From Selaginella moellendorffii (taxonomy: Eukaryota > Plantae > Lycopodiophyta), in assembly GCF_000143415.4 (NCBI RefSeq), contig NW_003314279.1:434130-498129 (forward strand): a stretch of DNA of 64,000 nucleotides, in the 5' to 3' direction. The stretch's first letter is position 1. Every line of letters starts with the position of its first letter. A program made the translations under genes and the position numbers. Positions 1 through 46,783 of this stretch are shown here, piece after piece. Below the pieces are notes generated by a model. The model was not told the origin of the DNA. It ran no database searches and was given only the letters and a program-made list of their open reading frames with translations.

Positions 1-416
1 TGAGATTATCCCACTTGTAAAATAAGTTTTCCAAACCTTTATATAGTATATAAATATAACAAAATTCAACTGCATTGAGGCACATGCCATTTTATTTTAA
101 ACAAGGAAATGTCTACTCAATCACTTCTCCTCCCCCTGCCACTGCTTCACCTCTCTCTTCTCCTTGTCATCGTCGTCCAATTTCTTTTCATCCTTTTAAT
201 ATTGGCTCAGTTGCTCCGAGTCTAGGTGGAGCCCAAGTCCCCATTCAATCTTTACTTTCCCCTTATTAATAAAACAACTTCGTAGACTTCCAATAACATG
301 CTGTAACACTTCTAGTATAATGCAAATCCTCTCAAAGAATTGTCTTTTAATATTAATACAATGGCATGGAACCCCATGCCATAATAAGTTACATTTTTAA
401 ATAAATACATGCCATC

Positions 417-3400
417 TCAGACTGTTATTTTTTGCCTCCAACGCCTATACAATAATCTTGGAATTTCATCACTCTCCACAGTATCAGGATTTAAACCCAA
501 TAGTAATGCCATCTCTTCTCTAATACGTCCACGCTCATGTTCAGTGGTCGAAGAACCCATCCGGTTGAGCAGATTATGGAGATGCGGATAGTGCTTGGCT
601 AGACAATATACATGCCATAAATGATGACTGGTGTCTGTCCGATCAAATGGCTTCTGATATACCATTCCATCTGCCATTTGGTTGATTTCTGCAGCCACCT
701 CCTGGACTGGCCGGTTCTCTATCACCATCGCTTCAAGCCGTTTTGCAAGGTCCCCCAGAACATACGGTTTCTTCTCCCTAGTTTCCATACTGCAAGAGAT
801 GGGGTGCACTGCATATGTGTGCGTGTTCGCTGCAGTTTTAATCGGCGAGTCATCGATGATGAGGATTTCACTTGACCTAGCAGTCCGGTTCATCACTACA
901 GCCTCTGCCTTGACGAAGATGGGCTTGCTACCCCTCACATGGACCATAGTCAAGCAATCCTCCTGCGTTAGGAGAAAGTCAAATGGTAATATTACTCGCG
1001 TCTGATCGTGCATCATCTGTAGCAACGTTAATGCATTGTGGCGCATCATGGATGTCCAAACTCCCAATTGCAAATTGAACCCGGCCCTCTGTTTTAAGTG
1101 TCGCATGGTCATTATTAGATCCCATAGTTTCTCCCGTGTGATTAATGTGAATCTGTCTCTTTTGACCAACTTGCGACCGCAGGTTTTGGAGGGTGCAGTG
1201 ACATTCGAGGACGAGCCACGCTCATGGGAGAAAAGGACACCGTTCAGATCAAAAACGATACAGTACTTTCGCTGTGACTCTGAAATGAAATGCGTCAGCA
1301 TAAAAAATGGTACAAGTCAATTTTACCATCTACAATATTAGCGAATGGTGCTCCCGATGGTCGTTGAGAGGGTTTTGGTCGAGGAAACGTGAAGGGCGGA
1401 AATACTCTCCTCTGCAATGTGGGGTCAATCGCATCCGATGGCGTGTGGGCACATGCCATTTCAGCTGTAGACTCTGGTACAACTGGCTCAACAGTGGCAT
1501 GGGGTGGTTCCAATGGCGTGTGATCACACGCCATTTCAGCTGGTGCCTCCGTTGGCAAAGTGGACATGACCGAACAGGCAGCAGGGGCGGTGTAGGGAGG
1601 TTCCAACGGCGCGTAGTCAGACGATTGGGCACACGTTGAGTCCATTGGAAATGAGGATACGACCGGCTCGGCGGCTGGGGCGGCCTCATGCGGGTCCAAT
1701 GGCGCCTGGTCACCGTCAGTTGGATACGTGGACAAGATTGACTCAGTGGTATGGGCAGCATCAAGTGGAGCGTGGTCAGCTTGCTTGGCGTTGATATGGA
1801 TAGTAGCCTCCACCAGCTCTGATGACTCTTGCAGGCAAGTAGAGTCCACTGGCGGATCCATATGCATGTCCAAATATCTCCCTTCAATTGAGATGGTATC
1901 CTCCCGTGCTACTAAAAACAAACTCATTAGCACATTGAATCGACTATACTGTATTTACCATCAACTGCTATTGAGGAACTAGGACCGATATCACTTGGGC
2001 GCATTGCTGATTCTGAAGGATTGGACATACGTTTCGACCCTTGCTTGGCACTATCCTTCCTCGACACTAAAGGCTAGAGTTTGTATCTTAATTCAACTGA
2101 ATAATCTCTACTTACCATTTCTTCTGCGACCTACATGGACAATGTTAGAAATGGTAAAAGGTTAGGAATGGATGTACTATTATTTACCTGATGGTTTGTC
2201 TTGTATGACCTTCCTCCGCTGCTCTTTGGCCACCTCAGGCTGGCCATCGTCGTCATCATCGTCATTGTCGTTATTGTGATCGTCACCATTGTGAGGACCA
2301 TCTAAGTCCTCTTCGTCCTCCTCTTCTTCGTCCTCCTCTTCTTTGTCCTCCTCTTCGTCCTTCTGCTCTTCGTGCTCATTATCTTTCTCTGGCTCCTCAT
2401 CCCCCTCTTGCATTTCTTCCATAGGCTGCTCAGGCTGGATGGCTTGTTTTTCCAGGACCATCTTGGGAAAATCATCTGGCCGAGTCTCCATCTCAAAATA
2501 CAAGACATCCATAGCCTGTTTTAGTGCTTGACCTAGGACTATATCCTCACCCGACTGTCTTAACATGGTTTTTGCACGTTCTTGCACCCTTCGAAGACGA
2601 CGAGATGAGAAAAATGTGGCCCTGACTTGAAAAGCATCCCTCATCCATTGTACCTCTCCATTGAGATTGGGGAAGGGGAGTCCGCCATAGGAATCTGAGT
2701 CAGAAGGTGGTGACTGGCTCCTTTCACTCAGCCCTTGATCTGCAATGAATGGCATGAGCACACACGCCATAACCGCGAGGCATTACCTATCATCTTTTCG
2801 TTGCCCTTCTTCCTTTTCGAATCAAACGCCTCTGATCCCGACGACTGTCCAACGTGCTTTCGCTTTTTATGACCACTGTCAGTTTGAGCTTGGCTGGTGC
2901 TTGCCTGTTTTGCCTTTGAAGAAGTGTCTCCTGCAAGGAATGGCATGAGACCACACGCCATTGCAAATATAATTTGTACCTCCTTTTTTCCTATTGCTTG
3001 TCTGTTTGTCCTTCTTCGACGCGCCACCAGTGTGCTTTTCAGTCCTCGTGTCTGAATATTCACAACGATCTATAATCAAAATGGCGTGAGGCCTCACGTG
3101 ACCTTACCTTGTGCAGGTTGTGAGCTCGGCCTAACATCAGTAGCTGTTAACGCCGTTTCAACATTTGGGGGTGGCCACGCTCCTGCATACAGAGCTTGTG
3201 AGATAACATTTAAACTTAAAGTGCGTACTCACCAGGTTCGTAGAGAAGATACTGTTTTTCTTTGGCAACTGTAATTATATGCTCCATTGAAGTCACCTCT
3301 TCAATGGAGTTTGTCACCGCAACACACGGGACACCCTTGAGTAGTGCGGCTCGAAAGAATAGTCTGCCGCAGTTGTACTCGACAACGCATTTGCCCTTGG

Positions 3401-6016
3401 AGTCACCCGCTATTGCGTTGAAGACCCAGCTGAGCATTTCCCATGCTGCACCTGGAGCTTTCTTTGGATTCGAAAGCTCCATAGCCGTCTTCAGTTCCTC
3501 AGGCACGGGTAAATTGACCTCCGTCAGATCAATTCGATCGGCTTTGTTGAACGAAGCTGGGAAGTCACTCCAGTCCCACTCTGCTGCAGGACCAATAACA
3601 AGGGCGAGTGTGAAGATGCGGACATTCGTCGGTATCTTCTTCTTAGCCATTATCCCATGGATCTCCCGCATCTCCTTGCCTTTCAACCGAGCCTTCACCT
3701 CGTTCAAGGCCTTCCAGAACTTGTGATAGGATTTGGAGTCGTAGATCATATAGTGGACTGAAGATTCCACCTCCGCAAGTCCCACCATTAAGTCAATGAT
3801 GGAGCTGACTTCGTCTGCATGAGTGATCTCCTCGTTTGTGAAGTCCATCACACAAAAGATGTTCTTGACCTGCTCATCTCCGCGGGAAACGATGCTCCTC
3901 CACCTTTGTTCCTCATCCGAATTCACGTATACCCGGTAAGGTTCTCGATAGGCCTCTGCTGCGGGGTCGAGCTGTTTCTGAAGCCGGCGGTCGACATCCC
4001 TCTTAATGAAATTTGGATACTGATCCAACTTCTCAGCTTTACTTTTTGTGGCATCCCGCAGCAGATCGATGAACTTGGGGGCCCCCTTCACGTAGTCGTC
4101 GATGTCTTCATTTGACAACTCCAGCTCTTCCATCATCTCTTGCGTGGTGTCGATGCTCACCCTCTCCACGGCCACTTGCTCGAAGATCCAATCCTTCAAT
4201 AGTGCACGAGCTCTCAGAGTCGTGCACAAGTCCTCGTATGTCACAATATGGCCGGGAGTCATTTTGGTCTTGTTGAAGACTACCTCACCACGTAGAAGAG
4301 CATTAGCCACTGTCAGAAGGTCGTCGTCATCTAGAGACCGCGAGAAACGCAAGGCGTTGAGCTTCAAATCATTGGGCTTCCGGCCGTCCTCCACACCCAT
4401 TGAGTTTAGCAACTCCCCGTCATGGTACCTCCTCAGCACATCTACCCATTTGTCAAAAACAACTTTTGTTGCGAGTAGAATGTTATGGATGCTGAGTGTG
4501 TCATTGACCCCCAGTGTTTTCGAGAGAAGACTCGAGAATTCCTGCAATGGAAATGGCGTGAGGCCACATGCTATGCCACATGCAACGAGGCTTACCTGCC
4601 AGGCGCTAGTTGCTAGTGCACGTCCTTGTCCTGGTTTTTGTGGCTTCTTCAGTTGAACCCAAAGCTTCCGTGTTCGTGCCAATGTCTCGTGCAGACCCGA
4701 TTTGTAGCACGTTTCTTGCTTGACATTCTGCGCGTGGGAGATGTATATGATAGATCGGAGGGGCGAGTTGCCTTTTATCAGGCGGACAACTCTTGTCTTG
4801 AAGACTTTCTTCACCTCCTCGCCCACCATAATATCCACAACTATCTATTGCATCGCCAAGCTAGAATGCTGCCCGGAGACGGCATAGAACCGGATGTTCT
4901 GATCGTCCAACACCTTCCTATTGATCAAGTCTGGAAACCTTGTCTCGCCCTTCATTGTTCGGTAGTAGGGGATCACGTCTGCGATGTCGGGTGTTACTGG
5001 ACTTGCCAGCATCTTCTGCTTCAGTTTCTCCACCCACTCATCAGATACTAGCCTGTGGTTGTATTTGCTTTGGATCTCGATACGGCTCACGTCGATTGTA
5101 TATACTTTGTTGGAATAGTAACAAGTACTATTATCTGCGACGATTTTTGCTGCCTCTTCTTGCTCTTTCTGCTCTTTGCGGCTCTTCTTTTTGGTGGGTG
5201 TAGTGTTCGAACCTGAGGCAATGGCATCACCGAGTAGCTTCTTTTTTGGAGCAGCAGAGTCGGACGTCGGCTTGAGCTTGACCACCCTTTTCTGCTTCGG
5301 GGTAGTTTCCAGATCGACCCCCTTCCCCTTCGCTTCGCAAACTAGAGGCACTTTCAACGGCTCAATGTTGGAATATAGTTTTTGAACATCGCCGTAGGTG
5401 AGGTCCGTTAATTCCATGTGATCTTCATAGACCCGCAGCGTCTTTGAAATTGTGGGCCTCCTGGACAACCTCTCCCTAGCTCCCTCTAGGAATTCCTCAT
5501 AGCCGCTGCCCCCCTCCGGGAAGCCGCTAGGATGTGCAATGTGGATCTTGAAGGCGGACGCTGTCTCTACCACAAGTGCCAGTCCATATTCTTGCATGGA
5601 ACTGCATGGAGTGTCTGTCACTTGGATGAGGATCCCCATGCATTCTTTTCTCCCACCATCTGTGTTGTACAGCATCAGATCCTAGCCTTCCATCCCGAAA
5701 GTCCAACTGGTGAGCTCCTCCCCCTTCTCTGCATCCACATTGACAGTGGCTGGAAGAAGAACGCAATTCCTCGCCTGTTCAGAAATGCACAACAATTAGA
5801 GCTGACAGATGAAAAGCTAGCAGCTAGAAATAACGTGAGGCCACACGCCATTCACCACTGCATCAGATGTCTTGAGGCTGCATCCTAAGATGGCGTGAGG
5901 CTACATGCCATCTGTAACCGGACTGCACTCGAGAGCCCAATCGGTGCATGCCAATGTTGCTACTGAATGGCATGTGGCCTCATGCCATTTTCTACTTGGC
6001 CTAAAAGACTTACCAT
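417..6016 (-). pseudogene. Multi-exon ~1,630-aa fusion protein: ParB/Srx-like domain, degenerate beta-class N4C/N6A methyltransferase-like region, acidic and Pro-rich linkers, FCP1/HAD phosphatase; two in-frame TAG stops (5682-5684, 4845-4847)
   Basis: Hand-checked frame-consistent GT-AG model. Exons: 6016-6014, 5774-4596, 4541-3233, 3182-3108, 3051-2980, 2930-2787, 2739-2188, 2130-2116, 2066-1959, 1911-1327, 1279-417. Motifs: IDVSRIEI..RLVSDEWVEKLKQKM..FYAVSGQHSSLA..ISHAQNVKQE (ParB-like); NPKKAP..CVVEYNCGRLFFRAALLKGVPCVAV (MTase motif I-like); VFDLNGVL / GVWTS / KPIFVK / IIDDSPIK (HAD motifs I-IV). Confidence 0.75.
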
Positions 6017-8934
6017 TTGAAGCCGAATGGAGGCCGTTACAATCGAGGCCGGACTCGCTAGCGAATGTGCACTGTGTGTGCAGCGGATCGTAGCAGCAAT
6101 GCTACTCTGCCACTTACAGTTGGAGAGTGGCACTGAAATCTCCCGGGACGCCAAGTGGGCTGCGTGTGGGTGGCGGAGTGGGCGGCGGAGTTGGCGGCGA
6201 AGTTACAAACTGGGTGTGGACGCCGATGCACACGAGCGCGATGCGAGCGCGAGTGTGATGCAAGCGCGAGTGGACGCCGATGCACACGAGAAACCTGTAG
6301 AGAAGGTAGATGAGCGCGAATGTGAGCGTGATCGCGAGTGGGAGCGCGATGCGAGCGCGAGTACGAAGCAAAATGCAAAACCTAACCTCACACGCGCGAA
6401 ATGTCACAACGGTTGGTAATCCCGTCACGTCATCATTCCTCGGACTTGGGCGCCACCATTAATTTCTGGATTGCCGCGCGCATGCAAGCACGCAAAATCC
6501 AAAAGAAATCCACAACGTCATCATTCCTCGGACTGCATGCACGCGAAATCCAAAAGAAAGATCATGATTGGGATATCATTTAATACCCTCGCTATATTTA
6601 TACCATGCATGATTGGATATTCCAAAGCATCTTGTATTTCCAAAAATGGCAGATGTTCAGCTAAATAAAGAAATTCTATCTGTTTCTATTTTTCTCTCAA
6701 ATCAATATTATAGCGTGTGGGCTCATGCAATTTTGAACCAAAAAACCCAAAAAACGTTGGACCTAAAATATTTTGAAAAAACCCAAAAAACCCTAAACAT
6801 TTTAAACCCAAAAATCCAGGCGTCCTGTGGCGTTATTCCTTGAATGGCGTGTGGGCGCATGCCATTTTCAGGGCCAAATGCTGAATGGAGAAAAATTCCC
6901 TTTCAGTGCAAATGCTGCAAGAGGCAGATGCCGAGCACAAAGGACTGTAACTACCTCACATGACACAGATAAACTTTTCTCTATTTGGCAAAGATAAACT
7001 TTATAGCGTGTGGGCTCATGCAATTTTGAACCCAAAAAATGCACCAAAAAATTCTCGGCGTCATCTGGCGTTATCTTTTGAATGGCGTGGGGCCGCATGC
7101 CATTTTCAGGGGCACATAGGAGTATATTCCTAGAATATTCTGACACGCGCGAGATTTTTTTGAGTTTTCTGGAGATCTAACTGTTAGATCGCAACTAGAT
7201 TTTACAAAATGGTATACAATGTCTTTCTTGATGACCCTGCAAAGAAGCATCTCAATCAGACACCACATGAGACCACACGAGCCTTACAATGTTTCAGGGG
7301 TATTTGCCATAGATCCGACCGTTATTTTGCTCCAAGATTTTACAGTTTGGTGTGCATTGACCTTTCCATCGACACTGCAAAGGGACATCACAATCAGATG
7401 CGGGATCACAAGAAACTAACTTCACTAACTCTGGTTTCACCAAGATCTACGTAAGGAGTTATGAAATGAAAGGACCCTCTCTATTGACATGTGTTTATGG
7501 TCCTAGGGGCATTGTGACATATCAAAGGATTTTGCATCAAGTTCTGTATTTGCATGTTTATCAAGCTACTGAATTGCTAAACCCTAAACCCTAAACCCTA
7601 AATATGTGGCAAATGCTGCGTGAAGAAAGATGCCCTTTCTGGGCAAATGCTGTAAGAGGCAGATACCGAGCAGATGTATCTCAGGCTAGCGAAGGGGACA
7701 AACGAAAGCTAGCTATAAACATGACGGGATGCAAATAGATTACTAGGCTGGTCCTACGAAAATCAAAAACCATAATTGAAAACATTGAAAATGCAAAAAA
7801 AAAGGTTTATAATATTTTTGAATTTTAAGCAACCAAAGGAATGTAAGTAGGGCATATGTTTGTAAGTTTAAAAATGCCTCAACCACTTAAATTCCCAAGT
7901 AAATAAAGTTGTTTCTATTTTTGGTACAGGTAAACTTTATAGCGTGTGGGCTCATGCAATTTTGAACCAAAAAATGCACCAAAAAATGCTCGACTAGCAT
8001 TATTCTTTGAATGGCGTGTGGCCTTATGTCGAGCATTATTCTTTGAATGGCGTGTCTTTTTTATATTGCCATAAATGGACGTACACACACAGCATAATTA
8101 TTCCTTTACACGGCGAATAATCTTGGCGCGGATCGCTGACATGGCATGGCAAAGTTCGAATCACTGACATGGCACAGCTGGATCGAGGCAAGGACATGAT
8201 GTGACAAAGTTCAACCTCCGACAGCAAAGTCTAGAAGCTACTCAGTTTGAAATTTGTCAGAGGAATCATAAGATCTGGTTTGTCAGAGGATTTGATGTGA
8301 CGTTTAAACGTGTGTTATTTTTGAATTCTCGAACTCATTCCTAGGTCTATCATTTTTGTGCGCCGTGTTCTTGGTTCCGCTGAGCGCAGTGAGTGCTGCT
8401 TGTGTAAGCGGCGTTGTGGGCTGTGGTTTATGCGTCTACGAGCGGTTGCGGCATTGCGAGCGCCATTGCGAGCGGCAGTTTATGCGAGTGGCAGTTTGTG
8501 CGAGCGGCACTACGAGCAGTTGCGGTGTTGCGAGCGGCGCTACGAGTAGTTGCGGTGTTGCGAGCGGCACTGTCTTTGGTGTGGCTACCGCTTCCTCTTG
8601 ATATTCGGCACTTGTGCTTCCTGGTATGTTCACCATGGAATGGCTTAGGACCACATTTAGAAATGGCATGAGGCCACATGCCATCTTGGGCCCTTGCAAT
8701 TTCATGGCTAGCGTATTGTCATGTATGTTTTTACTTGCCTACAGCTGTGTGTATATCAAGATGGCATGAGGCCTCATGCCAATTTTGTGAATGCGAAATT
8801 TCACGTGGGTGTCAATAGCATGTTTGAATAATGGCATGTGGCCTCATGCTATTGAGGTTGTTTGGTATGTTATGATTTAGGCCATTCTCCAATCATTTTT
8901 TGTATGGTCTTAACTTCTTTTCTGCACTTTCAGA
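6017..8934. promoter_or_regulatory. Divergent control region between the two element genes, including a probable 5'-UTR intron of the transposase gene
   Basis: GC-rich repeated segments next to each gene (GTGGACGCCGATGCACACGAG at ~6216 and ~6270; 30-bp tandem unit at 8501-8570). A triplicated block TTATAGCGTGTGGGCTCATGCAATTTTGAACC occurs at ~6708, ~7000 and ~7937. A TTTCAG acceptor lies just before the ATG at 8935. Confidence 0.5.
7577..7602 (+). repeat. Interstitial plant telomere-type repeat (CCCTAAA)n, ~3.7 units / telo-box cluster
   Basis: CTAAACCCTAAACCCTAAACCCTAAA read directly from the sequence. Confidence 0.85.
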
Positions 8935-11900
8935 ATGGCCTTCAGGGTTGGGGAAAAGGTTTACATTTTGAATGGTGGGAAGAGAGTTGCAAAAGGGACC
9001 CTTGTGTCTATGGATCGGAACTTTGTTATACACTGTCAAAGGCTTGGGGAAGGCAATGCTGCTGTATCAATAGAGACTGTCTTCGATGGGAATGTGGTCG
9101 CTATTGAACGAGGAGAGATGGTCGTCGGGGTAAATGTTGTTGTTGCCTTGAAAAATCTTCAGAAGAAAGCAGATGTTGGGGACAGCGCAAGTGCGACGCA
9201 TGTTCCCTCCGTGGATCTTAAGAACCGTGCTACATGGATTCAGGCAAAGGTGTTTCTAAACAACCCCGAGGGGGAGGTGGTAGCTGAGGGCTTAGCCACA
9301 GTTGTCGATCCAAGAGATGCGGTTGCTAATCAAGAATTGGGCTGGGATGATATTGGAGTTGCGATTTTAGAGGTTGTTGACACAGAAGAAAACAGTCTGA
9401 CTATTGGAAGCATTGTGCGGTGGAAATTGAGGCACTTAGTGTTTGAGAATGTAAAGGATTCACAATCAAACACCACTACAACTGATGACAGAACATCTCT
9501 TCATGGGAAAAGAAAGTACACCTTCCTAAAGCGCAGCCAAAGGGATCTGAGCAACGAACCGAAAAGGCAGAAAATGGCGATGGAGGTTCGAATGGTCTCG
9601 ACAGTTGCTTGTTGCAAGAGGAGGTGCTGTCAACATGCTGATTGGGATGCTATTGAAGAGGAGAGAGCAAGATACAAGACATTGTCCTGGAAGGCAACTC
9701 GCAATTTTGTGTATGAGGCATTACGGTCATCTGTTGATGCTTCAGAACATCAGGTGGGGGGCATGGTCTTCCAGAGGGGTTTGGTCTGCATGAAGGCATG
9801 GAGAATCATTTATGGAGTCCCTCGAACCACATTCTACAGAATCAAAACTGAGTTCGAGGAACAAAGGGTTCAACAGGCAGTCCATGGGAACGACGGTACG
9901 CACAAAACCAGGGGTCATGTTGTATATGGAGAGGCAATCTTCAAGAGGTTTGTCGAGACATGTAGCGAGCAGCAACCACATAAAACCCGCCTCTTGGAAG
10001 ATGGAACACGAGACACCCAACGAGTTCTCCCTTCCATGTATACCAAGGGGGCCATATTGGAAGATGTGAATCGGGAACTCCAGAGTAATGGCTACAGGAA
10101 GTTGAGCCAATCTAGATTTAGTAGATTGTGGAGCAACAGGTTCAGGGATGTGAGTATAGGAAAGTACTCCAGCTTTTCAAAGTGTGACGAGTGCACTGCT
10201 ATCAAAATGGCTTTGTCGAAGAATTCTTGCAGCGCTCAAGAGCGAGAGACGTTGGTTAGAAGGCGGCTCGACCACAACATCGAGTAGAGAAGCTGCAGGA
10301 CTGCATATTATCATAACAGGATTCTCTCCATGGAGAGACCTGACTCTTACCTCTGCATCATCCACGACAAAATGGACCAGAAAAAGACGTGCTTACCTCG
10401 ACTCAATCCTGCCCCCAAGGCAATATCTTCATCCATGCAGCTGCCTGTGTCTCTGTTTGGCATAATCGCTCATGGGCATGGTGCCCAGAACTATGGGAAC
10501 TTCTTTGTACCTCTATGGGGTGGCGGGGGTGCAAACATGATGATTGCGTCCCTAGCAAAACACTTAAGGTCTCTGCAAAGTGCGCAGACTGAGCTGAACG
10601 GCCAACCCTTGCATAAGGCCCTTGTCGATCGAACCCCATACAGGGTTCAGCTGGAGGAGGAGCAAAGGCTTGCAATATCGTGTGGGGCCCCATGCCATCC
10701 CAGTGAATATGTTGGCCGTCAGATTGTAGGGTTATCACGTGAGGCCTCATGCCATTCCGACGAGGCTTGTCGCCCGGTGAATGCACAGCCTCATCCAAAC
10801 GAAGCAAAATCTCAAGGAAGTTCTTGCGGCCGATGTGGCCTTCCACCCCATCTTCTGCTCCAAACAGACAATGCTGGCAGTGAGAACAAAAACATGTACG
10901 TCTTCGCGTACTTGGCGATGCTTGTTGCCAAAGGCATATTTGAAACGGTTACACTTGGCTTTCTCATGGTTGGGCACACTCATGAAGACGTCGATGCCAT
11001 GTTCAGTCACCTGGCAGAGTCCCTCCGGCGATCCAATGTCCTCACCCTCCCACAACTCTACGATGAATTCCAAAATTGCATCAAAGGCACTGTTGAAGCT
11101 GCACTTCTGACAGAGGTTCCAGACTTTAAGGGGTTTGTAAGAGGCTACATCAGGGACGGATCCGAAACGCTGATTGGCCACTCCAAGCCTCTTCAGTTTC
11201 ATTTCAGCATGTGTGACAGTGCTCCAGTGATGAGGTACAAGATGAGAGAATGGGACACAGTGTGGTTGCCAGTGGACGGCATTGAACTCTTCAAGAGAGA
11301 TCCCATAACTGGGGAACCTATGATTCCTCAGGGTTCCCCACAGCCGATGCACCCGGATGGACTCAAAGACCAGGAAAGTATAGTGGCCGGGATTAGACAG
11401 CATATTGCCTTCTAGAAGAGGGGGTTGGTGTTTGGTGGAGAATCCTATTTTCAGAGGTGCAAGCCTTTGCTCGAATACTGGGAGAAGATTATATCTGCTA
11501 TCCAAAATGGGCCGGTTGTATATGAAGAATTGGAAGAGTCCTTTTGGCCAGAACCCAGAGCACCAGATAGTAGCGGAACAATGTCCTCTGGAAATGCAGT
11601 GACAGATAACGATGTTGAGGATCACTATTGTGGGCCGAGGAACAAGAAGCCGGATTCAGCATTCAATCCAGTACAGGTCTGCAAAGGAATGGTCGTGCTT
11701 GTCAGACCCAGTAATAAAAAACAAATGATATGGGTGGGGCGCTGCATCACTGATGCAGAGGAGGACGCGGAAACTAACTCCTTCAATGTAACTGTGGAGT
11801 GGTTCAAGCCAAGTTCCGGATATACGAAGGATTGCCTAGAAAAGAGATGGGTGCTGAATCCAAGGGATCCCAGCATGAGCATATCGGTGGATAATGTTGT

Positions 11901-12076
11901 GCATGGTTGGATGCGGAAGCAGAGTGCCACCATCACCTTGCCAGACCATGCAAGAGATGCAGCAAGAGCATTCATAACCCGGGTTCAAGGTGAGATTCAT
12001 TAATATTCCTTTACTAAGTTTCTAATGTATTTTATTTCAAGGTGAACAATCCGAATCTGAATCAGAGGAGGCATGA
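8935..12076 (+). pseudogene. DDD/E-type transposase-like protein (Sola1/DUF7869-like core) with two N-terminal Tnp1/En/Spm-like repeats and a C-terminal SH3/BAH-like region; two in-frame TAG stops (10285, 11413)
   Basis: ORFs 8935-10287, 10330-11415 and 11425-12003 share one frame. Motifs: CCKRRCCQH, VCMKAWRIIYG, FSKCDEC, IIHDKMDQKKT, LQTDNAGSENKN, FLMVGHTHEDVDAMFS. Probable last intron 11990-12041 with a short terminal exon ending at TGA 12074-12076. Confidence 0.75.
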
Positions 12077-12716
12077 TGGCATGTGGCCTTACGCCATTCC
12101 TAGGTGAGATGATACAAATAACAACTATAAATTCTTAGTTGTTCTAGCAAATCTTACTTAAAGTTCAAGGTGAACAAGCCAAATATGAATTCATCGGATT
12201 GTTATAACAAATTGCGAGGTGATGGCATGAGGCGATACGCCATTTGAGAGTGGTAGCCATTCCTATATGAGGTGAGTGAAATGTTTATTAGAAATACCTC
12301 ATTCAATTGTGCACTTTTAAGTCTTGGTCCACTCAGTACTGTTTGCATGTTTCTATTTTAATTCTTTCTCTAAAATGTTATTTAGCATGTGGCTTCATGC
12401 CATTGCTCTCCACAATCATGCATTGAATTTTTCTATCCTTGCATAATACTTCTCCATATATATAACATGTGCGCACATGTGATATGGTTCATTAGGCCTG
12501 ATATAATGTGTGAGGTAAAACAAAGATGATGTGACATATGCATTTACCAATCACACGTGCATAAATCTAATAATATGGCGTGTGGCCCATATTAATGGCA
12601 CATAAACCCATATTGTGGGCTTACGTGCTTTATGTACCATCATTCCCTTGCAGCGTGTGTGTTGGTTTCCTTTTATAACACAACGAACTCCATATTTTAG
12701 GGTGAAGAGCGTTCAC

Positions 12717-12974
12717 ATGGCAAGCACAAAATCTGTAAGTGAGGCAGAAAAGGAGACGGAGAAGGAGATAGGTGAAGATGTAGAATATATAAGTCTTCCA
12801 AACTCCCCGTACTATACTCCAAGTGATCATTTTTCTGAACAAACGGCAACATTAACAACTATCGAGAACGCCCCAGTAACGTCAGAGACAACAATCCAAA
12901 GCAAAACAACTGACCCGGAGAAGGATGATAGTACCGCTGAGAGTACCAAAAAGGAGGTGTCCACTAGCGCTTAG
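12717..12974 (+). CDS. Small acidic Ser/Thr-rich ORF or exon inside the element, function unknown
   Basis: Open frame MASTKSVSEAEKETEKEIG...; preceded by a TTTTAG acceptor near 12700 and flanked by palindrome copies at 12575 and 12982. No recognisable domain. Confidence 0.3.
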   Translation: MASTKSVSEAEKETEKEIGEDVEYISLPNSPYYTPSDHFSEQTATLTTIENAPVTSETTIQSKTTDPEKDDSTAESTKKEVSTSA

Positions 12975-13632
12975 GCTTATAATGGCGTGTGCCCTCATGC
13001 CATTTACTTGATCACCAAATACCTTTTTCCCTTTGCACTAGTATATCTTAATACCGGTCTGAGAAATAGAATGGCATGTGCCCTCAGGCCTTTTACTAAA
13101 TCACCTTTGAAAGAAATGCAAGCCTCTATGTCGCAAAAAAAAGGTACTAGAGAAATTCCTTAATAATATGAATGTTATTTAGTTTCATGAAAATACACTA
13201 AGGGTCAAATGAGTTAAATGACTTCTCCAGACTAGCAATGCCTCTTGCTACACCTTCACAATTAGATTCGTTAGAAAAAGATAACATTGAATAATATCTA
13301 AATGTTCTCACCATTAAGTTGTATGTCTGGCTAATAGGAATGACGTTCATCTTGGAAAGCTCACCACACGCTCAATGAACAAACAAATAGTGTGTGCGCG
13401 CATGCCATCGCTCTTCTTTAGCTTCAGATTCGGCTTGTTCACCTTGACAATGAGATTTATTATACAACCAGATGGACTCAGTCTGGACATAAAGTCACCG
13501 CGCTAGTCACCATGCCCCAGATATGTCTAGCCCCTGGACAAAAAACATATAATTTCACGTCATTTTCAAATACTTGAAAATTTGTACCTAGTCCCATTTT
13601 ACTGAATAAATCCCACTTTAACGAAATAGAGC

Positions 13633-16600
13633 ATGGGAGTGGAACTCCCAACCGAGTGCTCAAGGAACGAGCATGAAGCGAGCAATAAGCGAGGCTAAAA
13701 AAAGGGACCCAAAAGGACTAACACATGACACGTGGGAGTGTCCGAGATGGAGTCTGAGTTGGAGTCCAAGATGGAGTCCGAGATGGACCCGAGTTGGAGT
13801 CTGAGGTGGAGTCCGAGATGGAGTCCGAGATGGACCCAAGATGGAGTCCAAGATGGAGTCCGAGATGGAGTCTGAGATGGACCCGAGATGGAGTCCGAGA
13901 TGGATCGAGACGGAGTCCGAGATGGAGTCCGAGATGAACCCGAGATGGAGTCCGAGATGGACCAAGACGGAGTCCGAGATGGAGTCCGAGATGGAGTCTG
14001 AGATGGAGTCCGAGATAGAGTCCGAGATGGACCCGATATGGAGTCTAAGATGGAGTCCGAGATGGACCGAGACGGAGTCCGAGATGGAGTCCGAGATGGA
14101 CCAAGACGGAGTCCGAGATGGACCCGAGATGGAATCCGAGATGGAGTCCGAGAAGGACCCAAGATGGAGTCCAAGGTCAAGACCGAGACCGGGACTGAGA
14201 CCGAGACTGGGACCGAGACCGAGACCGAGACCGGGACCAGGACCGGGACCGAGACCGAGGCCGAGGCCGAGACCGAGCCCGAGTCTGAGTCCGAGTCAGA
14301 ATCCGAGTCCGAGTCCGAGTCTGAGTCCGAGTTCGAGTTCGAGTCTGAGAGGGTGAAAGCCCAAAGCGTTCGTCTCCTAGACCCTAGGGGGTTTGGTGAG
14401 CTCCAAAAGTATAGTAAGGGGGAGGATTGCAGTGGAGTCAGTTTGGCCAGGGAAGGCCAGACCCAGTGTTGGGTGAGGAACTGACCACTGGGAAGTCCAA
14501 GACTAGAGTGAATACGGACCGATAAGCAGGGTAGCTTGGTGAAGTGTTCAAGAGCCGGCTCTAGTTCCCCCGGGAGATCGACTGGCCGATGCTCCCAGTT
14601 CATGAGTGGGTGGCACTACCTACTTGGATACCTAGCATGGCTCAACGGAACCTCGCTCTAAGCCCATGGCTAGAGCACCTAAAGGCGGAAGGTGGGGAGA
14701 GTACCCACGGGGCTCGTGTAGGGCCATGGTGTTCCGAAATGTTGTCCCAAAGTCCCAAACTGGGGAAAGGAGAAGGAGCAGTCTTCTAGTGTAGTGACTA
14801 AGGATATGGTCACATGGTGAGGAAGTCCCCGAGGACAATGGGACTTAGTGGCCGGGCCTATGGGCCTTGATCTAGTTGCAGTATTGGCAAATATAGCCAT
14901 GGACAGAAAAAGGACTTGGTAGGAACTGAAAAAGGGATATTAGGGAAGGGTATTCCCCATGTCTGTGGGCATCCTAAGGATGCTAAGGAGTGGATCTAGG
15001 ATGACCACTCGTGGACGGATGGCCTAGTCTTGGAGAGACGGGACTGTGATGCAAGTGGTATTGAACCACCAGTGTGGCAAAGGTGAATGGGCATGGCCTT
15101 AGTGTAACAGGCCGATATGTTAATGGTACCTTTGGTTGTCAGTCATGGGACCGGACACGTGGAGCACTTGGACCAAGTGCAACGGTTGAGTGGCACGGAT
15201 GCCATTCTTGGGGCTAGCAAGTCCCCAAGTCCGGAATAAAACTTATAGAGGTTGTGAGTGAGACTCCTCCAAGTGGTCGGAGGTGTGGTTAAGTGACTAA
15301 AGTAGAATGGAAAAATTAGTCGCTTACAACTTGGTATCGGAGCTGTTCCTTACTCCGACTCTTATTAGTAGCCAAGTATATCACCACTTGTATTGGAATT
15401 GGAAGGTCCTAGATATGGACCTATCCTCAAGGAGTAGCATGTCGAGAGGACATGGCTCTCCGCTTAAGTTCATGTGTGAACTTGTGCGCGATGTGGTGGA
15501 TGGAAAAGGGCCAGTAAGGGAACGACTTTGGGATCTTGGGAACGGTATAAGGTTTCCCTCAAAGAGTTAAGGATGTGATCCGGATGAGCGTTTGACTCAG
15601 CTAACTAGCTAAGGTAGTTATGGTAAACAACTATAGTTGGGATCACAGGAAAGATGCAAACTCCAAAACAATAAAGGAGTCACAAGATAATCCGCACATA
15701 GTTGAGGCTGGTGCTCATGAATTTGAGACCGGAATTGATGATCATGAGAGGTCAAGTACGGATGAGGGCAAGAGCCCTCGAAATGGTAGCTAGGGCTACC
15801 TTTTATAAATGCTGGAACAAACCCAAGGAGTTGGGGGTATGCTCAAAGGATGAGTCGGCATTCTCATCATAGGGACGGATAGTCCTAAGGGGCAAAGGCA
15901 GCCCACAGAGAACGGGAAATAATGAAGTGTTGGAATAACACTTGCAAGATGGTCCTTATGAGTAGGACATGAATACATGAAGTTGTATTCAAGTGAGCTG
16001 GCACCTCAAAAATAGGACCTTATGGGTTGTTGGTTTAGCGAAGTCCAAAAATGTTGGATGACTCAAGTGGGGTCAGGGAATGGTCCTAAGGGATTAGTTA
16101 AAGCATTTAGACTGAGGTGTATAATGCCCCATGAGTATTGGGAGGATTATAAGATCCAAGTATGAGAACAGGAGATATCTCATTGATGGCAGAATGTGCC
16201 ATACTAAAGTTGTGGGAAAGATGTTCCCAGAAGAAAGCAACTTTAGCCCAGAGTTGGGGACAAACATTATGGTGCAGTGCTAATGGATAGTTAGCAGGAG
16301 GCACAACTATATTGGTCTTGGCAAAGACCTAGACACTAATAAGTAGTGTTATAAGGATAGGCTCATAGGGCGAATGGTGTGGAGACACCAAATGTGCCAA
16401 GGTGTGATACCTTGAAGTTATGTTGATGGGTTCATAAGAACCCCTTGCCAAGAGAATCCCAACGGAAATGGGAATGGCATAATCTAAGCTGGAAGGCATG
16501 TGGTAGAGTGTGGTGACCAAAACAATGATGGAGGTGTGGAAGCACCAACAATGAGTTGTAGGACTTGATAACTATGAGGCAACTAAGCAAAAGGTGCAAG

Positions 16601-19432
16601 ATAATTGGTTAAACTGGTAGAAGGTAACTACCCAAGACTTCTTAATGGCATAAGGAAGTTAGATATACCCTTACGAGGGATAAATTGCTTATGTTGCGAT
16701 ATAGTAAGTCAATGTCATAAAAGGGAATGCTCATTGTCAAACAGGCCATCATTTGGGACACCAAAACACTCTAGAACACCAGGAAGTGGTGTTTGATGTT
16801 GCGAGGGCAATAGATAAGGCCCAAGGGACTAAATCCCTAGTGAATGATGGATAGAAGGTGCTATCCAAATGTCCAATGTTGCGAAGACGGGAGAAGACTG
16901 TCTACCCAAATTGGATAAAACCAAAAATGGAATTTTGGAAAGGCTAGTGATAGGCATGTAAAGGCCCATAAGCAACAACTTTAATCCCAGTGTGTGGGAT
17001 TACAAGGTGAGCATACATGGATTGAAGAACCACTCCCTAGGCTATCGGGTAGGTTCATCCTAAGAATACTTGTTAAGGCATGATAGAAAGTGCAAAACTA
17101 TCCTCCTAGTCTGGAGGAGAATGACTGAAAGAAAGGTGTGAAGCCAAAAGCAAGTAGTAAGGGGATAGAACCAAACTATAGAAATCAAAGGGCATAACCA
17201 AGGGTGGTTATGCTAGTTGGGAGTGGAGAATCAAGTGGGGGCTCGAGGGTGTTGTTGCTAGCAACCGTGATGCCATGGAGAGTCTAAAATATGGAATTGT
17301 CCATACTAGACTATATGGCAACTAGAAAGCTTGCGAAAAGGGAGGTCTTAGCAAGCTAAGGGACAGAGTTCCTTTAAGGTTCCCAAAGACGATTCTAAGT
17401 AGCTTAGTACCTAGAAAGGCCAAGTGTAAATGGTTCATAGAACGCATGAAACTAGAGTGGCGCAGCAGAAGCATGGTCTTGAAGCTTGCCATGAGGCAAG
17501 GCTATCAAGGTTAGGGAAGCAATTCCCAAGTGTTCAAAGAGAGGGCTTTGAACGAAAGTCGATGGTCAAGGACTTTCACACTTATGCAGGAACCATGTTA
17601 CGGTGGTCAGAGGACTTGCCAAGCGGGATTGGCAAGTCGGGGGAACAAATACCCTAGTTGAAGGTGATAATTTTAAAAGGGTGGGCCATAGGGCCAAGCA
17701 TGGAGGAGTCCATGCATGATCACAGATGTGTCAAGTGAGAGGACTTAGTAGTGTGGAGGAACTAGGTTCCTAAGCTGTGATCTATAGCACGCTTTAAGTA
17801 TAAATTGGTGCACCGGCGTGGGGAGTCACGCCAGGCATCTAGGATGATGCCTTCTGTAGATGCATATACGGAGGTTGGGTTCGAGTCCCGACCCCCTAGT
17901 GCTTGGGTTCGAGTCCCAAATCACTAGGGCGTGGTGATGGTTTGGAATATGAGGACACCCATATTTCGGTGGTCATGGACTCTTAATGAGGAGATTGGCT
18001 TGGGCACACTGCCAAACGGGGGATGCCCCAGAGTCGTGATGCACGGTTAGATTGCTTAGAGTGAGAGTTCGGCATATCTAACTTGAACACTTTGGTGCAA
18101 AGGGCACCAAGGACGTGGTGAATGAGATGGGGACACCCAGTCTCAATTGCTATGGATCCTTGGCCGGAAGGGCTGGCTTGGGCGCACTGCCAAGTGTGGG
18201 GGATGCCCCCGGGGTCATAGTCAACAACTTAAAAGGGTTTGGAAGACCTGGTTCCTACTGGTAGACCTATTGAGGGGTCAAGATGAGATCACTAAGTGAT
18301 CTTGTGGCTAAACAAGGACAAGGTCTTTGTTTGGGTTAAGGGATATGATTCCTAGTTCAAAGTGTTGATTTGAACTATTGATAATGGTGTGGCTTGGTCA
18401 AGGTGACCAAGTAGGAAGAGCACCTATGGGAAATGAGCTATGTCACTGCTATGGCATAGTAAATCCGAGGAAAGTAGTCTCTATAAGAGATCCAAGGGAG
18501 GGTCTCAAAAGTTGGGCCATGGATAGAGCCCACAGCAGGAAATGTTAAAGAGACGTACTAGGGGTGAACACCCTCTAGACTTGGCAAAAGCAAAGTGTTT
18601 GCTATGGAACTGAAAGGAAACCTCGAAAATGGAGGTAGCAATCCTATGTTGCTGGGTGCAACAATCAAGGATAGGAGCAAAAGATTAGTGGCTAAGAAAA
18701 GAGCCATGGGAATCATGGGAAAAAATCCAAATGGCAAAGTTAGGCCGAGAACACTAATGTGTTGGGTCTTAAAGGATTGTGGGAAAGGCAATGTTTCCCC
18801 AAAGATGGATTCCCAATCGCTCCGATTTGGCGAAAGTGGATGCTCCAAAGGGGGCAGTGGTAAGGTAGCCAAATAATAGGGCCGTGGGCAGCCCTAGCAC
18901 CAATTATGATAACTGGAACTTAGTGCCAAAAGTGGCACGATATCGAAGAGAGGATGATGGTACCCTCAAGTAAAGAACTTCCTAGGATAGGGAAGTGGAG
19001 TTACACCATATGCAACGTAAGGTGTCGGAGACACCTAGGAAATTGATTCTGAGAAGTCAAAATTAAAAGTTCCAAAGTGCAAAGGTTATGTTAATGGAAT
19101 CTGAGACAACTCAAGAATGAGTAGTGGAATTGAGTTAGAGAGGGTGTCTCTTACGGGTTTAGCGAGAACTAAACCAATAAAAGGGAGCAAACCACCCCAG
19201 GTGGCCGAATGAGTCTCTATGTTGGAGAGACTATGCCCCTTAGAGGATAGACAAAGCATGGTGAGCCTTCGAGGTCAAACCATAGACAAATATTAGCTAT
19301 GTGCCAAGGATGGAAATGGTAATACCTGCGAGTGATACTTTATAAAAGAGTTTACAGTTCGATGAGGACATCGAACTTCGTCTATGGGTGGTGGAGTTGT
19401 GAGACACAAATCCCTAAGCCCCAAAGTGGAGA
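13633..19432 (+). mobile_element. Non-autonomous LTR retrotransposon (LARD-like), copy A; 5' LTR lacks its first ~125 bp and the 3' LTR is truncated after ~35 bp
   Basis: 5' LTR ends ...CGCTTACA at 15328, followed by PBS TGGTATCGGAGC (15332-15343, tRNA-Met type). ~4.1 kb internal region collinear with copy B. Purine-rich PPT ATGGGTGGTGGAGT precedes the 3' LTR start TGTGAGACAC at 19398. Confidence 0.85.
13735..14350. repeat. GAGTCC/GAGATG/GAGACC 6-12-bp minisatellite inside the LTR (also at ~20035-20470, ~40398-40715, ~46076-46610)
   Basis: Direct tandem units visible; it generates the spurious (ES)n, (RP)n and (SRTP)n ORFs in the track. Confidence 0.95.
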
Positions 19433-19807
19433 CACAAAGTTGTGAGACACAAATCCTTTGAAGACATATGGGAAACTCACTCAAATTTCGAGCATCATCC
19501 CAGGAATGATATATGGGAATCACCATAAAGTCAAATCAATGGTACACATCATCCCCAAGATTTCTACAGAAGAACTCCGGCCGGATGCGAGGATTAGTAG
19601 CAAGAGTAGGAAGAGTTGTACCACACACTGTAAATACTACTATCAATTAAGTTTAATTGTTCAATTACAACTACATAACATCGAACATTGCACCAATTAT
19701 TGCTCTAAAGTCAAAGAAGGAAGAGGCTACTACTTTGCGATGAAGATGAACAAAAAGGAAAGAGCAAAAAAGAAGAAATTGAGAAAAATAATAAGAAAAG
19801 AGATATC

Positions 19808-21471
19808 TGTGAGACACAAATCCCTAAGTCCCAAAGTGGAGCCGAAAGAGTGCCACGTGGTAGTGGCCGAAGCAAAAGCCAAACGAGTGTAACACGTTTG
19901 GACTAAAAGGCTCCAACTTGAAAGGTTGAGAGCGGGAGTGGAACTCCCAACCGAGTGCTCAAGGAACGAGCATGAAGCGAGCAATAAGCGAGGCTAAAAA
20001 AAGGGACCCAAAAGGACTAACACATGACACGTGGGAGTGTCTGAGATGGAGTCCGAGTTGGAGTCCAAGATGGAGTCCGAGATGGACCCGAGTTGGAGTC
20101 TGAGGTGGAGTCCGAGATGGAGTCCGAGATGGACCCAAGATGGAGTCCAAGATGGAGTCCGAGATGGACCCGAGATGGAGTCCGAGATGGACCGAGATGG
20201 AGTCCGAGATGGACCCGAGATGGAGTCCGAGATGGAGTCCGAGATGGACCGAGACGGAGTCCGAGATGGACCCGAGATGGAATCCGAGATGGAGTCCGAG
20301 AAGGACCCGAGATGGAGTCCGAGGTCAAGACCGAGACCGGGACTGAGACCGAGACCGGGACCAAGACCGAGACCGAGACCGAGACCGAGACTGGGACCGA
20401 GACCGAGACCGAGACCAAGTCCGAGTCCGAGTCCGAGTCCGAGTCTGAGTCCAAGTCCCAGTTCGAGTCTAAGAGGGTGAAAGCCCAAAGCGTTCATCTC
20501 CCAGACCCTTGGGGGTTTGGTGAGCTCCAAAAGTATAGTAAGGGGGAGGACTGCAATGGAGCCAGTTTGGCCAGGGAAGGCCAATTTGGCCCAAGAAGGC
20601 CAAACCTAGTGTTGGGTGAGGAACTGACCACTGGGAAGTCCAAGACTAGAGTGAATATGGACCGACAAGCAGGGTAGCTTGGTGAAGTGTTCAAGAGCCG
20701 GCTCTAGTTCCCCCTGGAGATCGACTGGCTGATGCTCCCAATTCAAGTGTGGGTGGCACTACCTACTTGGATACCTGGCGTGGCTCAACGGAACCTCGCT
20801 CTAAGCTCATGGTTAGAGCACCTAAAGGCGGAAGGTGGGGAGAGTACCCACGGGGCTCGTGTAGGGCCATGGTGTTCCGAAATGTTGTCCCAAAGTCCTA
20901 AACTGGGGAAAGTAGAAGGAGCAGTCCTCTAGTGTAGTGACTAAGGATATGGTCACATGGTGAGGAAGTCCCCGAGGACAATGGGACTTAGTGGCCAGGC
21001 CTACGGGCCTTGATCTAGTGGCAGTGTTGGCGAACATGGCCATGGACAGAAAAGGGACTTGGTAGGAACTGAAAAAGGGATATTAGGGAAGGGTATTCCC
21101 CATGTCTGTGGGCATCCTAAGGATGCTAAGGAGTGGATCTAGGATGACCACTCATGGACGGATGGCCCAGTCTTGGAGAGATGGGATTGTGATGCAAGTG
21201 GTATTGAACCACCAGTGTGGCAAAAGTGAATGGGCATGGCCTTAACGTAACAGGCCGATATGTTAATGGTACCTTTGGTTGTCGGTCATGGGACCAGACA
21301 CGTGGAGCACTTGGACCAAGTGCAACGGTTGAGTGGCACGGATGCCATTCTTGGGGCTAGCAAGTCCCCGAGTCTGGAATAAAACTTATAGAGGTTGTGA
21401 GTGAGACTCTTCCAAGTGGTCGGAGGTGTGGTTATGTGACTAAAGTAGAATGGAAAAATTAGTCGCTTATA
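19808..21471 (+). mobile_element. Solo LTR (~1.66 kb) of the same family with 5-bp TSD ATATC
   Basis: Starts TGTGAGACAC and ends AGTCGCTTATA (C>T variant of ..TTACA). ATATC at 19803-19807 and 21472-21476. No PBS follows. Confidence 0.92.
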
Positions 21472-46100: not shown

Positions 46101-46455
46101 GTCCGAAGTGGAGCCCGAGATGGAGTCCGAGGTGGACCGAGACGAAGTCCGAGATGGAGTCCGAGATGGAGTCCGAGGTGGACCAAGATGGAGTCCGAGA
46201 TGGAGTCCGAGATGAAGTCCGAGATGAAGTCCGAGGTGGACCGAGACGGAGTCCGAGATGGAGTCCGAAATGGAGTCCGAGATGGACCGAGACGGAGTCC
46301 GAGATGGGGTCCGAGACGAAGTCCGAGGTGGACCGAGACGGAGTCCGAGATGGAGTCCGAGATGGACCGAGATGGAGTCCGAGATGGAGTCCGAGATGGA
46401 CCCGAGATGGAATCCGAGATGGAGTTCGAGAAGGACCCAAGATGGAGTCCGAGGT

Positions 46456-46487
<32 letters not shown>

Positions 46488-46783
46488 GGACTGGGACCGA
46501 GACTGAGGCCGAGGCCGAGTCCGAGTCCGAGTCTGAGTCCGAGTCCGAGTCCGAGTCTGAGTTCGAGTCCGAGTCCAAGTCCAAGTCCGAGTCCGAGTTC
46601 GAGTCTGAGAAGGTGAAAGCCCAAAGCGTTCGTCTCCCAAACCCTGGGGGGTTTGGTGAGCTCCAAAAGTATAGTAAGGGGGAGGACTGCAGTGGAGCCA
46701 GTTTGGCCCAGAAAGGCCAGTTTGGCCTAGAGAGGCTGCACCCAGTGTTGGGTGATGAGCTGACCACTGGGAAGTCCAAGACT
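40170..46783 (+). mobile_element. Non-autonomous LTR retrotransposon (LARD-like), copy B; complete 5' LTR 40170-41709, 3' LTR from 45847 truncated at ~46783
   Basis: TG..CA termini; PBS TGGTATTGGAGC at 41713-41724; PPT before 45847; internal region collinear with copy A plus a ~72-bp tandem duplication at ~41862-42005. Confidence 0.88.

Follow-up and report, generated by a model that had tools for sequence, protein, structure and literature searches.

The first 13,632 bases of a 64,000-nucleotide stretch of the Selaginella moellendorffii genome (contig NW_003314279.1, positions 434,130 to 498,129; hereafter, the window) belong to a multi-copy DNA transposon. Its gene layout is divergent, with a transposase gene on the plus strand and an intron-rich accessory gene on the minus strand, and a 22-bp degenerate palindrome is scattered along its length. 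A first-pass annotation of this DNA had described a transposase-like gene on one strand and, on the other, a gene fusing ParB-like, methyltransferase-like, and HAD parts, whose product was suggested to recognize the palindromes. The two genes lie as it described, with the following domains.

1–13632, no strand: DNA transposon with multiple copies, its left end beyond the window and its right end at ~13632.
417–6016, minus strand: accessory gene, with 11 exons and a 1634-aa product predicted, and TAG stops at codons 32 and 311.
4713–5111, minus strand: ParB/sulfiredoxin-fold domain, with SGQHS at 4863–4877 in place of the GERR of ParB.
4212–4541, minus strand: helical domain following the ParB domain, a candidate DNA-binding domain.
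3234–3881, minus strand: degenerate Rossmann domain, methyltransferase-like but lacking a (D/S)PPY motif.
417–1279, minus strand: NIF/FCP1-type HAD phosphatase-like domain, with a DLNG motif near 1256 (PF03031, E 1.9e-5).
8935–12003, plus strand: DUF7869 transposase, ~1020 aa, with TAG stops at codons 451 and 827.

The transposase matches Pfam DUF7869 (E 4.5e-43) and contains the motifs HDKMD (10360), QTDN (10858), and GHTHEDVD (10972), which are common to 28 homologs; those that could be named come from a liverwort, a coral, and a lancelet. P0003, a 96%-identical transposase from another copy, reads through the first of the two stops. No relative of the transposase was found in viral contigs. 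The element is likely a Sola-type DUF7869 DNA transposon, Sola being the type to which we take DUF7869 transposons to be assigned. An acidic 122-aa open reading frame (ORF) at 12606–12974, 3′ of the transposase and without a Pfam match, may be a further exon.

The palindrome has the consensus ATGGCRTGWGGCCWCAYGCCAT. At ≤6 mismatches, 29 copies lie in 1–13632, between 69 and 13408 (26 at ≤4 mismatches and 27 at ≤5). The other 50,368 bases of the window hold none at ≤5 mismatches and one at 6, as expected by chance (shuffle mean 1.0). By comparison, 100 Markov shuffles of 1–13632 gave a mean of 0.01 palindromes at ≤4 mismatches, and a repeat search of 1–16000 to which no pattern was supplied recovered a dispersed 23-nt family that is the same palindrome. 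The count of 29, the range over the whole element, and the absence from the remaining ~50 kb, all asserted in the first-pass annotation, are thus borne out. The sites, none of which is assigned a strand, are placed as follows.

69–382: palindromes at 69 and 361, 3′ of the accessory gene.
1438–1534: palindromes at 1438 and 1513, both inside a coding exon of low complexity.
2749–4574: palindromes at 2749, 2940, 3081, and 4553, each in its own predicted intron (four introns, 47–56 nt).
5830–5988: palindromes at 5830, 5890, and 5967, all within the accessory gene's predicted intron 1.
6710–8032: palindromes at 6710, 6844, 7003, 7082, 7939, and 8011, intergenic, between the divergent genes.
8663–8852: palindromes at 8663, 8761, and 8831, within a GT-AG intron predicted at 8624–8933, just 5′ of the transposase ATG.
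10677–10755: palindromes at 10677 and 10734, in a variable insert of the transposase catalytic domain.
12076–13408: palindromes at 12076, 12222, 12382, 12462, 12982, 13071, and 13387, 3′ of the transposase.

This placement avoids coding sequence. Coding sequence makes up 58% of the element yet contains only 4 of the 29 sites (binomial p 9e-7); the other 25 lie outside it, 10 of them in predicted introns. Past intron 1, the body of the accessory gene holds six sites, four of which fall inside short introns; these introns amount to 5% of positions (p 8.5e-5), and four of the nine hold one palindrome each. A further 12 sites occupy the two first introns and the intergenic stretch. Where palindromes do encode peptides, these peptides were not found in more distant transposase homologs.

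The arms of the palindrome do not covary. The sites contain 234 complementary arm pairs, as compared with 234.5 when halves are re-paired, so there is no compensatory variation. Moreover, position 9/14 prefers a mismatch (Fisher p 0.04), A-C mismatches are present on the transcribed strand, and the copies in the window are dispersed with unrelated flanks. Because the two arms vary independently, the palindrome accords better with a double-stranded target of a protein dimer than with a hairpin, in agreement with the earlier view that the dyad behaves as a protein site. One could instead regard the palindromes as RNA hairpins, DNA cruciforms, or neutral products of local duplication, citing the four short-intron sites that lie 9–29 nt from a 3′ splice site and the arrays of related transposons, which are tandem with periods of 43–56 bp. 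Set against the arm behavior, the mismatches, and the dispersal just described, we find this explanation quite improbable. Its RNA-hairpin form was rejected on the lack of compensatory change in the arms and the mismatch preference at 9/14.

The candidate for the protein that would bind these sites is the product of the accessory gene. In the predicted splice model, ten canonical GT-AG introns fuse 6016–417 into one frame that encodes, in order, an N-terminal domain, a basic linker, the ParB-type domain, the helical domain, the degenerate methyltransferase-like domain, an acidic region, and the NIF/HAD domain. The intron at 4542–4595 is backed by a homolog that lacks its 18 residues, and the stop at 4845–4847 is a sense codon in other copies. 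Sequence searches of Pfam, PHROG, and PDB detected neither ParB nor a methyltransferase, whether with the window protein or with its homologs, and no phage match was found. The evidence for ParB comes from structure prediction. An AlphaFold model built with a 20-row alignment has a mean predicted local distance difference test (pLDDT) score of 64, with values of 80–90 over most of the ParB part; a model from the single sequence (pLDDT 31) was not usable. The modeled ParB domain aligns to Caulobacter ParB 7bm8 with Z 10.4 and a root-mean-square deviation (rmsd) of 2.4 Å over 98 residues (VIA-align). In Foldseek, the top PDB match of the model is Noc 7ol9 (E 3.7e-4), and most of the top viral matches are ParB proteins. 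A Foldseek-independent fold search of 48,161 representatives returned ParB-family chains as its three best rows, and an Atlas search gave ParB-clan leads for the same domain. A ParB-type fold in a transposon gene separate from the transposase is thus supported at the level of models, as is the earlier description of the protein as ParB-like.

The methyltransferase-like domain looks like a decayed N4/N6 methyltransferase, an assignment that is weakly supported. Among the matches listed by Atlas, 10 of 10 rows were N6_N4_Mtase, with scores of only 0.79–0.82 (lead level), and in one sequence search the best methyltransferase match had E 0.53. When a four-sequence profile was compared by HH-align with the HPTQKP-to-DPF stretch of 33 reference methyltransferases, the score was 27.4 at a probability of 8%, and the best of 30 shuffles reached 21.5. 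A fold search with the low-confidence C-terminal part returned generic Rossmann folds only, with no methyltransferase among the rows. By PF01555 criteria, the catalytic (D/N/S)PP(Y/F) motif is absent from all four of the family's C-terminal regions aligned, and the FxGxG S-adenosylmethionine motif is degenerate. Since the catalytic motif is missing, methyl transfer is not expected; the domain is likely catalytically inactive, and the idea of an active methyltransferase is not supported. Of the fusion as first described, the predicted ParB fold and the NIF/HAD match thus stand, whereas the methyltransferase part is weak and the joining of the NIF/HAD domain to the rest of the gene is a prediction of the splice model.

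A full HMMER search gave 17 matches to the accessory protein; 15 were kept, P0098 and P0102 having been left out before alignment as repeat artefacts. Ten homologs were looked up, and the three named clusters are from Selaginella moellendorffii, Calypogeia fissa, and Riccia sorocarpa, all land plants. Together with introns of 47–57 nt, the named homologs point to a seed-free lineage. Word-indexed homolog searches with the accessory protein found no match, a blank that reflects low sensitivity given the 17 matches from full HMMER. The P0088 cluster consists of Selaginella moellendorffii proteins of 379–451 aa that match the helical and methyltransferase-like parts without the ParB domain; judged by sequence, it may be a domesticated or truncated derivative.

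The element is one of several copies. Contigs of runs X1, X3, and X4 leave no part of 1–13632 uncovered, and on the left side contigs of other copies continue beyond the window's edge. The right end lies at ~13632, where a contig of another copy diverges and the element adjoins a long terminal repeat (LTR) that is without its first ~120 bases; this is consistent with insertion of the DNA transposon into the first LTR. At least half of the sampled words are present in 19 of the 24 runs listed, including runs with only 2–4 Mb of contigs, which suggests a high-copy family. Run X20, which may be DNA, was left out as evidence of expression. The expectation that the two genes occur together in other copies is borne out in part: contigs of X1, X3, and X4 cover both genes, but no single contig spans both. 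The window copy itself is broken by four stop codons, two per gene, and would depend on intact copies. A plant telomere-like repeat (CCCTAAA units) lies within the element at 7577–7602, between the two genes; along with the PPR and RNA polymerase genes elsewhere in the window, it marks the host as a plant. The motif TCCCAYTT occurs at 9, 13592, and 13611 in one orientation, with three further copies elsewhere in the window, and could be a terminal transposase site.

Our analysis leads us to propose that a dimer of the accessory protein binds the 22-bp palindromes, marks the copies of its own family, and keeps both transposon genes transcribed against silencing, a proposal to which we give an even chance of being correct. 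The ParB-type domain, accompanied by a methyltransferase-like domain that is likely inactive, would provide the dimeric binding, and the bound protein would act in trans, so that copies without the gene would also be marked. The two genes of marked copies would then stay transcribed despite host silencing, as with VANC of Arabidopsis VANDAL transposons. Protection would come from occupancy of the DNA or recruitment of host factors, not from methyl transfer by the accessory protein. Between the window copy and the contigs of run X3 there are 128 differences, 93 of which are C>T or G>A in the window copy; this would be the pattern expected of a methylated element, and we count it in favor of the proposal.

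VANC21 binds introns, intergenic DNA, and terminal non-coding DNA (PMC5735166, in the part of the paper accessible to us), and the VANC-like placement noted at the outset holds, with palindromes in introns and between the two genes. In both systems, as far as the accessible text on VANDAL describes them, family-specific motifs occupy introns and non-coding DNA and differ between related families; VANDAL motifs arise in tandem repeats, as the arrays of the transposons related to ours are tandem. However, VANDAL is a Mutator-like element with a 9-bp motif, no ParB fold is reported for it in that text, and binding and demethylation have been shown for VANC. The window element combines a DUF7869 transposase with a ParB-fold protein, rather than a VANC domain in a Mutator-like element.

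Several observations weigh against self-marking by the accessory protein, some from the protein and others from related transposons. Structural alignments to ParB, Noc, and KorB reach model residue ~313, into the DNA-binding domains of those proteins, at an overall rmsd of 10–16 Å. Fourteen aligned rows cover the arginine patch, which reads GQHS in 13 of them and GQHT in the other. The related loci are the best 80 of 525 confirmed matches in a metagenome scan with the transposase alignment. They are not independent, several being the same insertion, and most are decayed and apparently plant-derived; their palindrome motifs and thresholds were set once a de novo scan had been made. None of the 80 has the window's palindrome as a family, and 36 of the 80 carry a repeated palindrome of their own. 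A ParB-family remnant was seen in only one of these loci (L033); the ParB alignment offered no sufficiently conserved stretch for a DNA scan, and the scan queried the transposase only, with no direct search for ParB-bearing loci. The tie between ParB gene and palindromes is looser than the first-pass annotation took it to be. An 11.3-kb element (L013–L015) has 36-bp terminal inverted repeats (TIRs), 27 palindromes, and three HAD genes, and a ParB gene was not found in it; in the D group of relatives, palindrome arrays are found immediately upstream of the transposase. The class of motif agrees with the transposase tree, with 4 changes against a shuffled mean of 8.7 over 20 tips (near-identical and unlabeled tips removed), which shared descent alone would explain. 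Palindromes are thus shared across the clade and do not depend on a ParB gene in cis, most palindrome-bearing relatives showing no detectable one; this is the chief finding against the link drawn in the first-pass annotation. The decay of these relatives makes it possible that the ParB gene was lost or is supplied in trans.

Two features of the relatives count in favor of the proposal. At L033, a likely decayed ParB-family gene lies on the opposite strand, beside the locus's own palindrome cluster; the frameshift-stitched remnant scores 22.0 bits, as compared with ≤11.4 in 11 control places. In addition, palindrome classes B, C, and D share a central G-W-GGCC-W-C core with the window, while their outer arms differ.

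The relatives also bring in the strongest alternative, in which the palindromes would be internal binding sites of the transposase that serve in pairing the ends or in self-activation, with the ParB gene as a dispensable passenger. Palindromes in many relatives without a detectable ParB gene, including a TIR-bounded element, would follow directly, as would the dependence of motif class on the transposase tree. At L041 and L043, dyads lie within the TIRs themselves, and the transposase N-terminus bears a weak likeness to TNP1/En/Spm Transposase_23 (E 0.014–0.07). There is also a precedent: the AtMu1 transposase alone binds and activates cognate copies, according to the accessible portion of a recent preprint (bioRxiv 10.64898/2026.08.24.746577). 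Spm TnpA and AtMu1 thus resemble our proposal in that a transposon-encoded protein activates cognate copies by binding a family-specific motif; they differ from it in that the protein is a transposase or transposase-derived and, as described in that portion, binds at element termini. The palindromes, by contrast, are enriched in accessory-gene introns, kilobases from the right end, and the separate TCCCAYTT motif could serve as the terminal site. Moreover, decayed relatives may have lost the ParB gene or be served in trans. Because site placement matches that of VANC sites, while Arabidopsis transposase/TnpA binding is terminal, we favor binding by the accessory protein and regard binding by the transposase as unlikely, though with a substantial chance of being right.

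A second alternative assigns the palindromes to the host, as captured sites of a transcription factor that drives both transposon genes. Most sites do lie in promoter, intron, or 3′ regions, and in some relatives the core looks like a plant factor site. The palindrome of L018, for example, has the core CACGTG, which we take to be a plant transcription-factor site. Yet a 22-bp site with high information content, absent from the window's 50 kb of host genes and LTR elements, and with outer arms that vary between families, is not what such capture would lead one to expect, and we consider this explanation improbable.

Finally, the ParB fold and the palindromic sites invite comparison with true ParB/parS partition, in which a partition complex or cytidine triphosphate (CTP) clamp would segregate or tether excised element DNA. 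Bacterial ParB, Noc, and KorB (PDB 7bm8, 7bnk, 7ol9, and 8qa8; parS, NBS, and OB sites) share with the window protein the N-terminal fold, a helical domain after it, and palindromic sites. They differ in that the window has GQHS rather than GERR, no ParA found, a 22-bp site of different sequence, and extra domains. The GxxRxxA arginine patch is the CTP-binding motif of ParB. With this patch replaced by GQHS or GQHT, a canonical CTP clamp or CTP-driven sliding is doubtful on sequence grounds. In addition, no ParA-like gene was present among the nine long ORFs scanned in the window part of the element, and a chromosomal transposon segregates with the host chromosome anyway. The partition-like role suggested in the first-pass annotation therefore finds no backing, and we judge it very improbable.

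Self-binding by a ParB-domain transposon protein was offered there as a new idea, but the arrangement is of a kind recently proposed and already in print for algae. Two 2025 algal genome papers propose that such proteins bind and modify their own element, and their accessible texts report no test. In the brown alga Ectocarpus, the giant DNA transposon Sola1-1_Ec32 carries, opposite its transposase, a gene with ParB-like and N4-cytosine/N6-adenine methyltransferase parts, proposed to bind and modify its own element (PMC12477816). Compared by description, the likeness to the window element is close. The Ectocarpus protein has 1104 aa, the accessible text mentions neither a palindrome nor a HAD domain, and the window's methyltransferase-like part differs in being without the catalytic motif. 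In the red alga Bostrychia, the Plavaka protein PAG3 has a ParB-like N-terminus and inverted-repeat tandem arrays beside its gene, and self-binding is proposed (bioRxiv 10.1101/2025.02.11.637652). Again by description, the shared features are a ParB-domain accessory protein and element-specific inverted repeats near its gene, a pairing that speaks for our proposal. As far as that preprint could be consulted, the transposase there is of the EnSpm/Plavaka type, the effector is a putative 2-oxoglutarate oxygenase, the methylase is a separate gene (PAG2), and the repeats are tandem and adjacent; the window palindromes are spread along 13 kb and sit in introns. More broadly, chlorophyte and chytrid methyltransferases fused with a helix-turn-helix of the ParB type have been described by Iyer et al. 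(PMC4738411), and Sola elements are seldom found in plants, Physcomitrella being a known case (PMC12973397; PMC9033089), as stated in the accessible parts of these papers. In the literature searched, which lay outside subscription journals and the supplements of the algal papers, we found no description of a ParB-bearing transposon in a land plant. What is new here is the land-plant case, the dispersed intronic 22-bp site, the probably dead methyltransferase-like domain, the HAD domain, and the Selaginella and liverwort homologs.

The window element provides a defined 22-bp site, 29 natural variants of it, a modeled ParB domain, and named Selaginella and liverwort relatives, and thus makes the self-binding hypothesis directly testable. 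If the hypothesis is true, a prokaryotic DNA-segregation fold became an anti-silencing factor of a plant transposon. If the transposase binds instead, transposase sites are spread across an entire element, introns included. A wider scenario, which we put forward tentatively and think rather more apt to be wrong than right, is that in seed-free land plants a Sola-like transposon lineage took over a ParB-methyltransferase module of bacterial or phage origin and made it into a dimeric self-marker that is sequence-specific but catalytically dead. Every family would have its own long intron and promoter palindrome around the shared GGCC core, and all cognate copies would be shielded from silencing in trans, independently of VANC and TnpA. 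A relative lacking the ParB domain may live on as a separate Selaginella moellendorffii gene.

The related loci carry some further features. Two contigs of ~3 kb (L006:51–2936 and L041:32–2790) hold the transposase only, with strong family-specific dyads in tandem arrays or long TIRs. Inside the TIR-bounded element, L013:2322–5222 contains a tandem row of three NIF/HAD phosphatase-like genes, all decayed and opposite the transposase, and L071 holds a HAD fragment; HAD genes are a recurrent cargo of this clade of transposons. Lying upstream of the transposase and opposite to it, an ORF (L032:1–648 and L035:8675–9322) has a weak protease-like match (PF22102, E 0.022) and is possibly Ulp1-like cargo.

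In the rest of the window, two related LTR retrotransposon copies, 84–88% alike, occupy 13635–21470 and 40170–46783. The LTRs of both hold 12-bp tandem arrays, and LTR pieces also occur at ~48330. An RNA polymerase largest-subunit gene at 28825–30756, possibly of the Pol IV/V type, has a long single exon with Rpb1 domains 2–5, and a PPR protein gene lies at 52296–53951.

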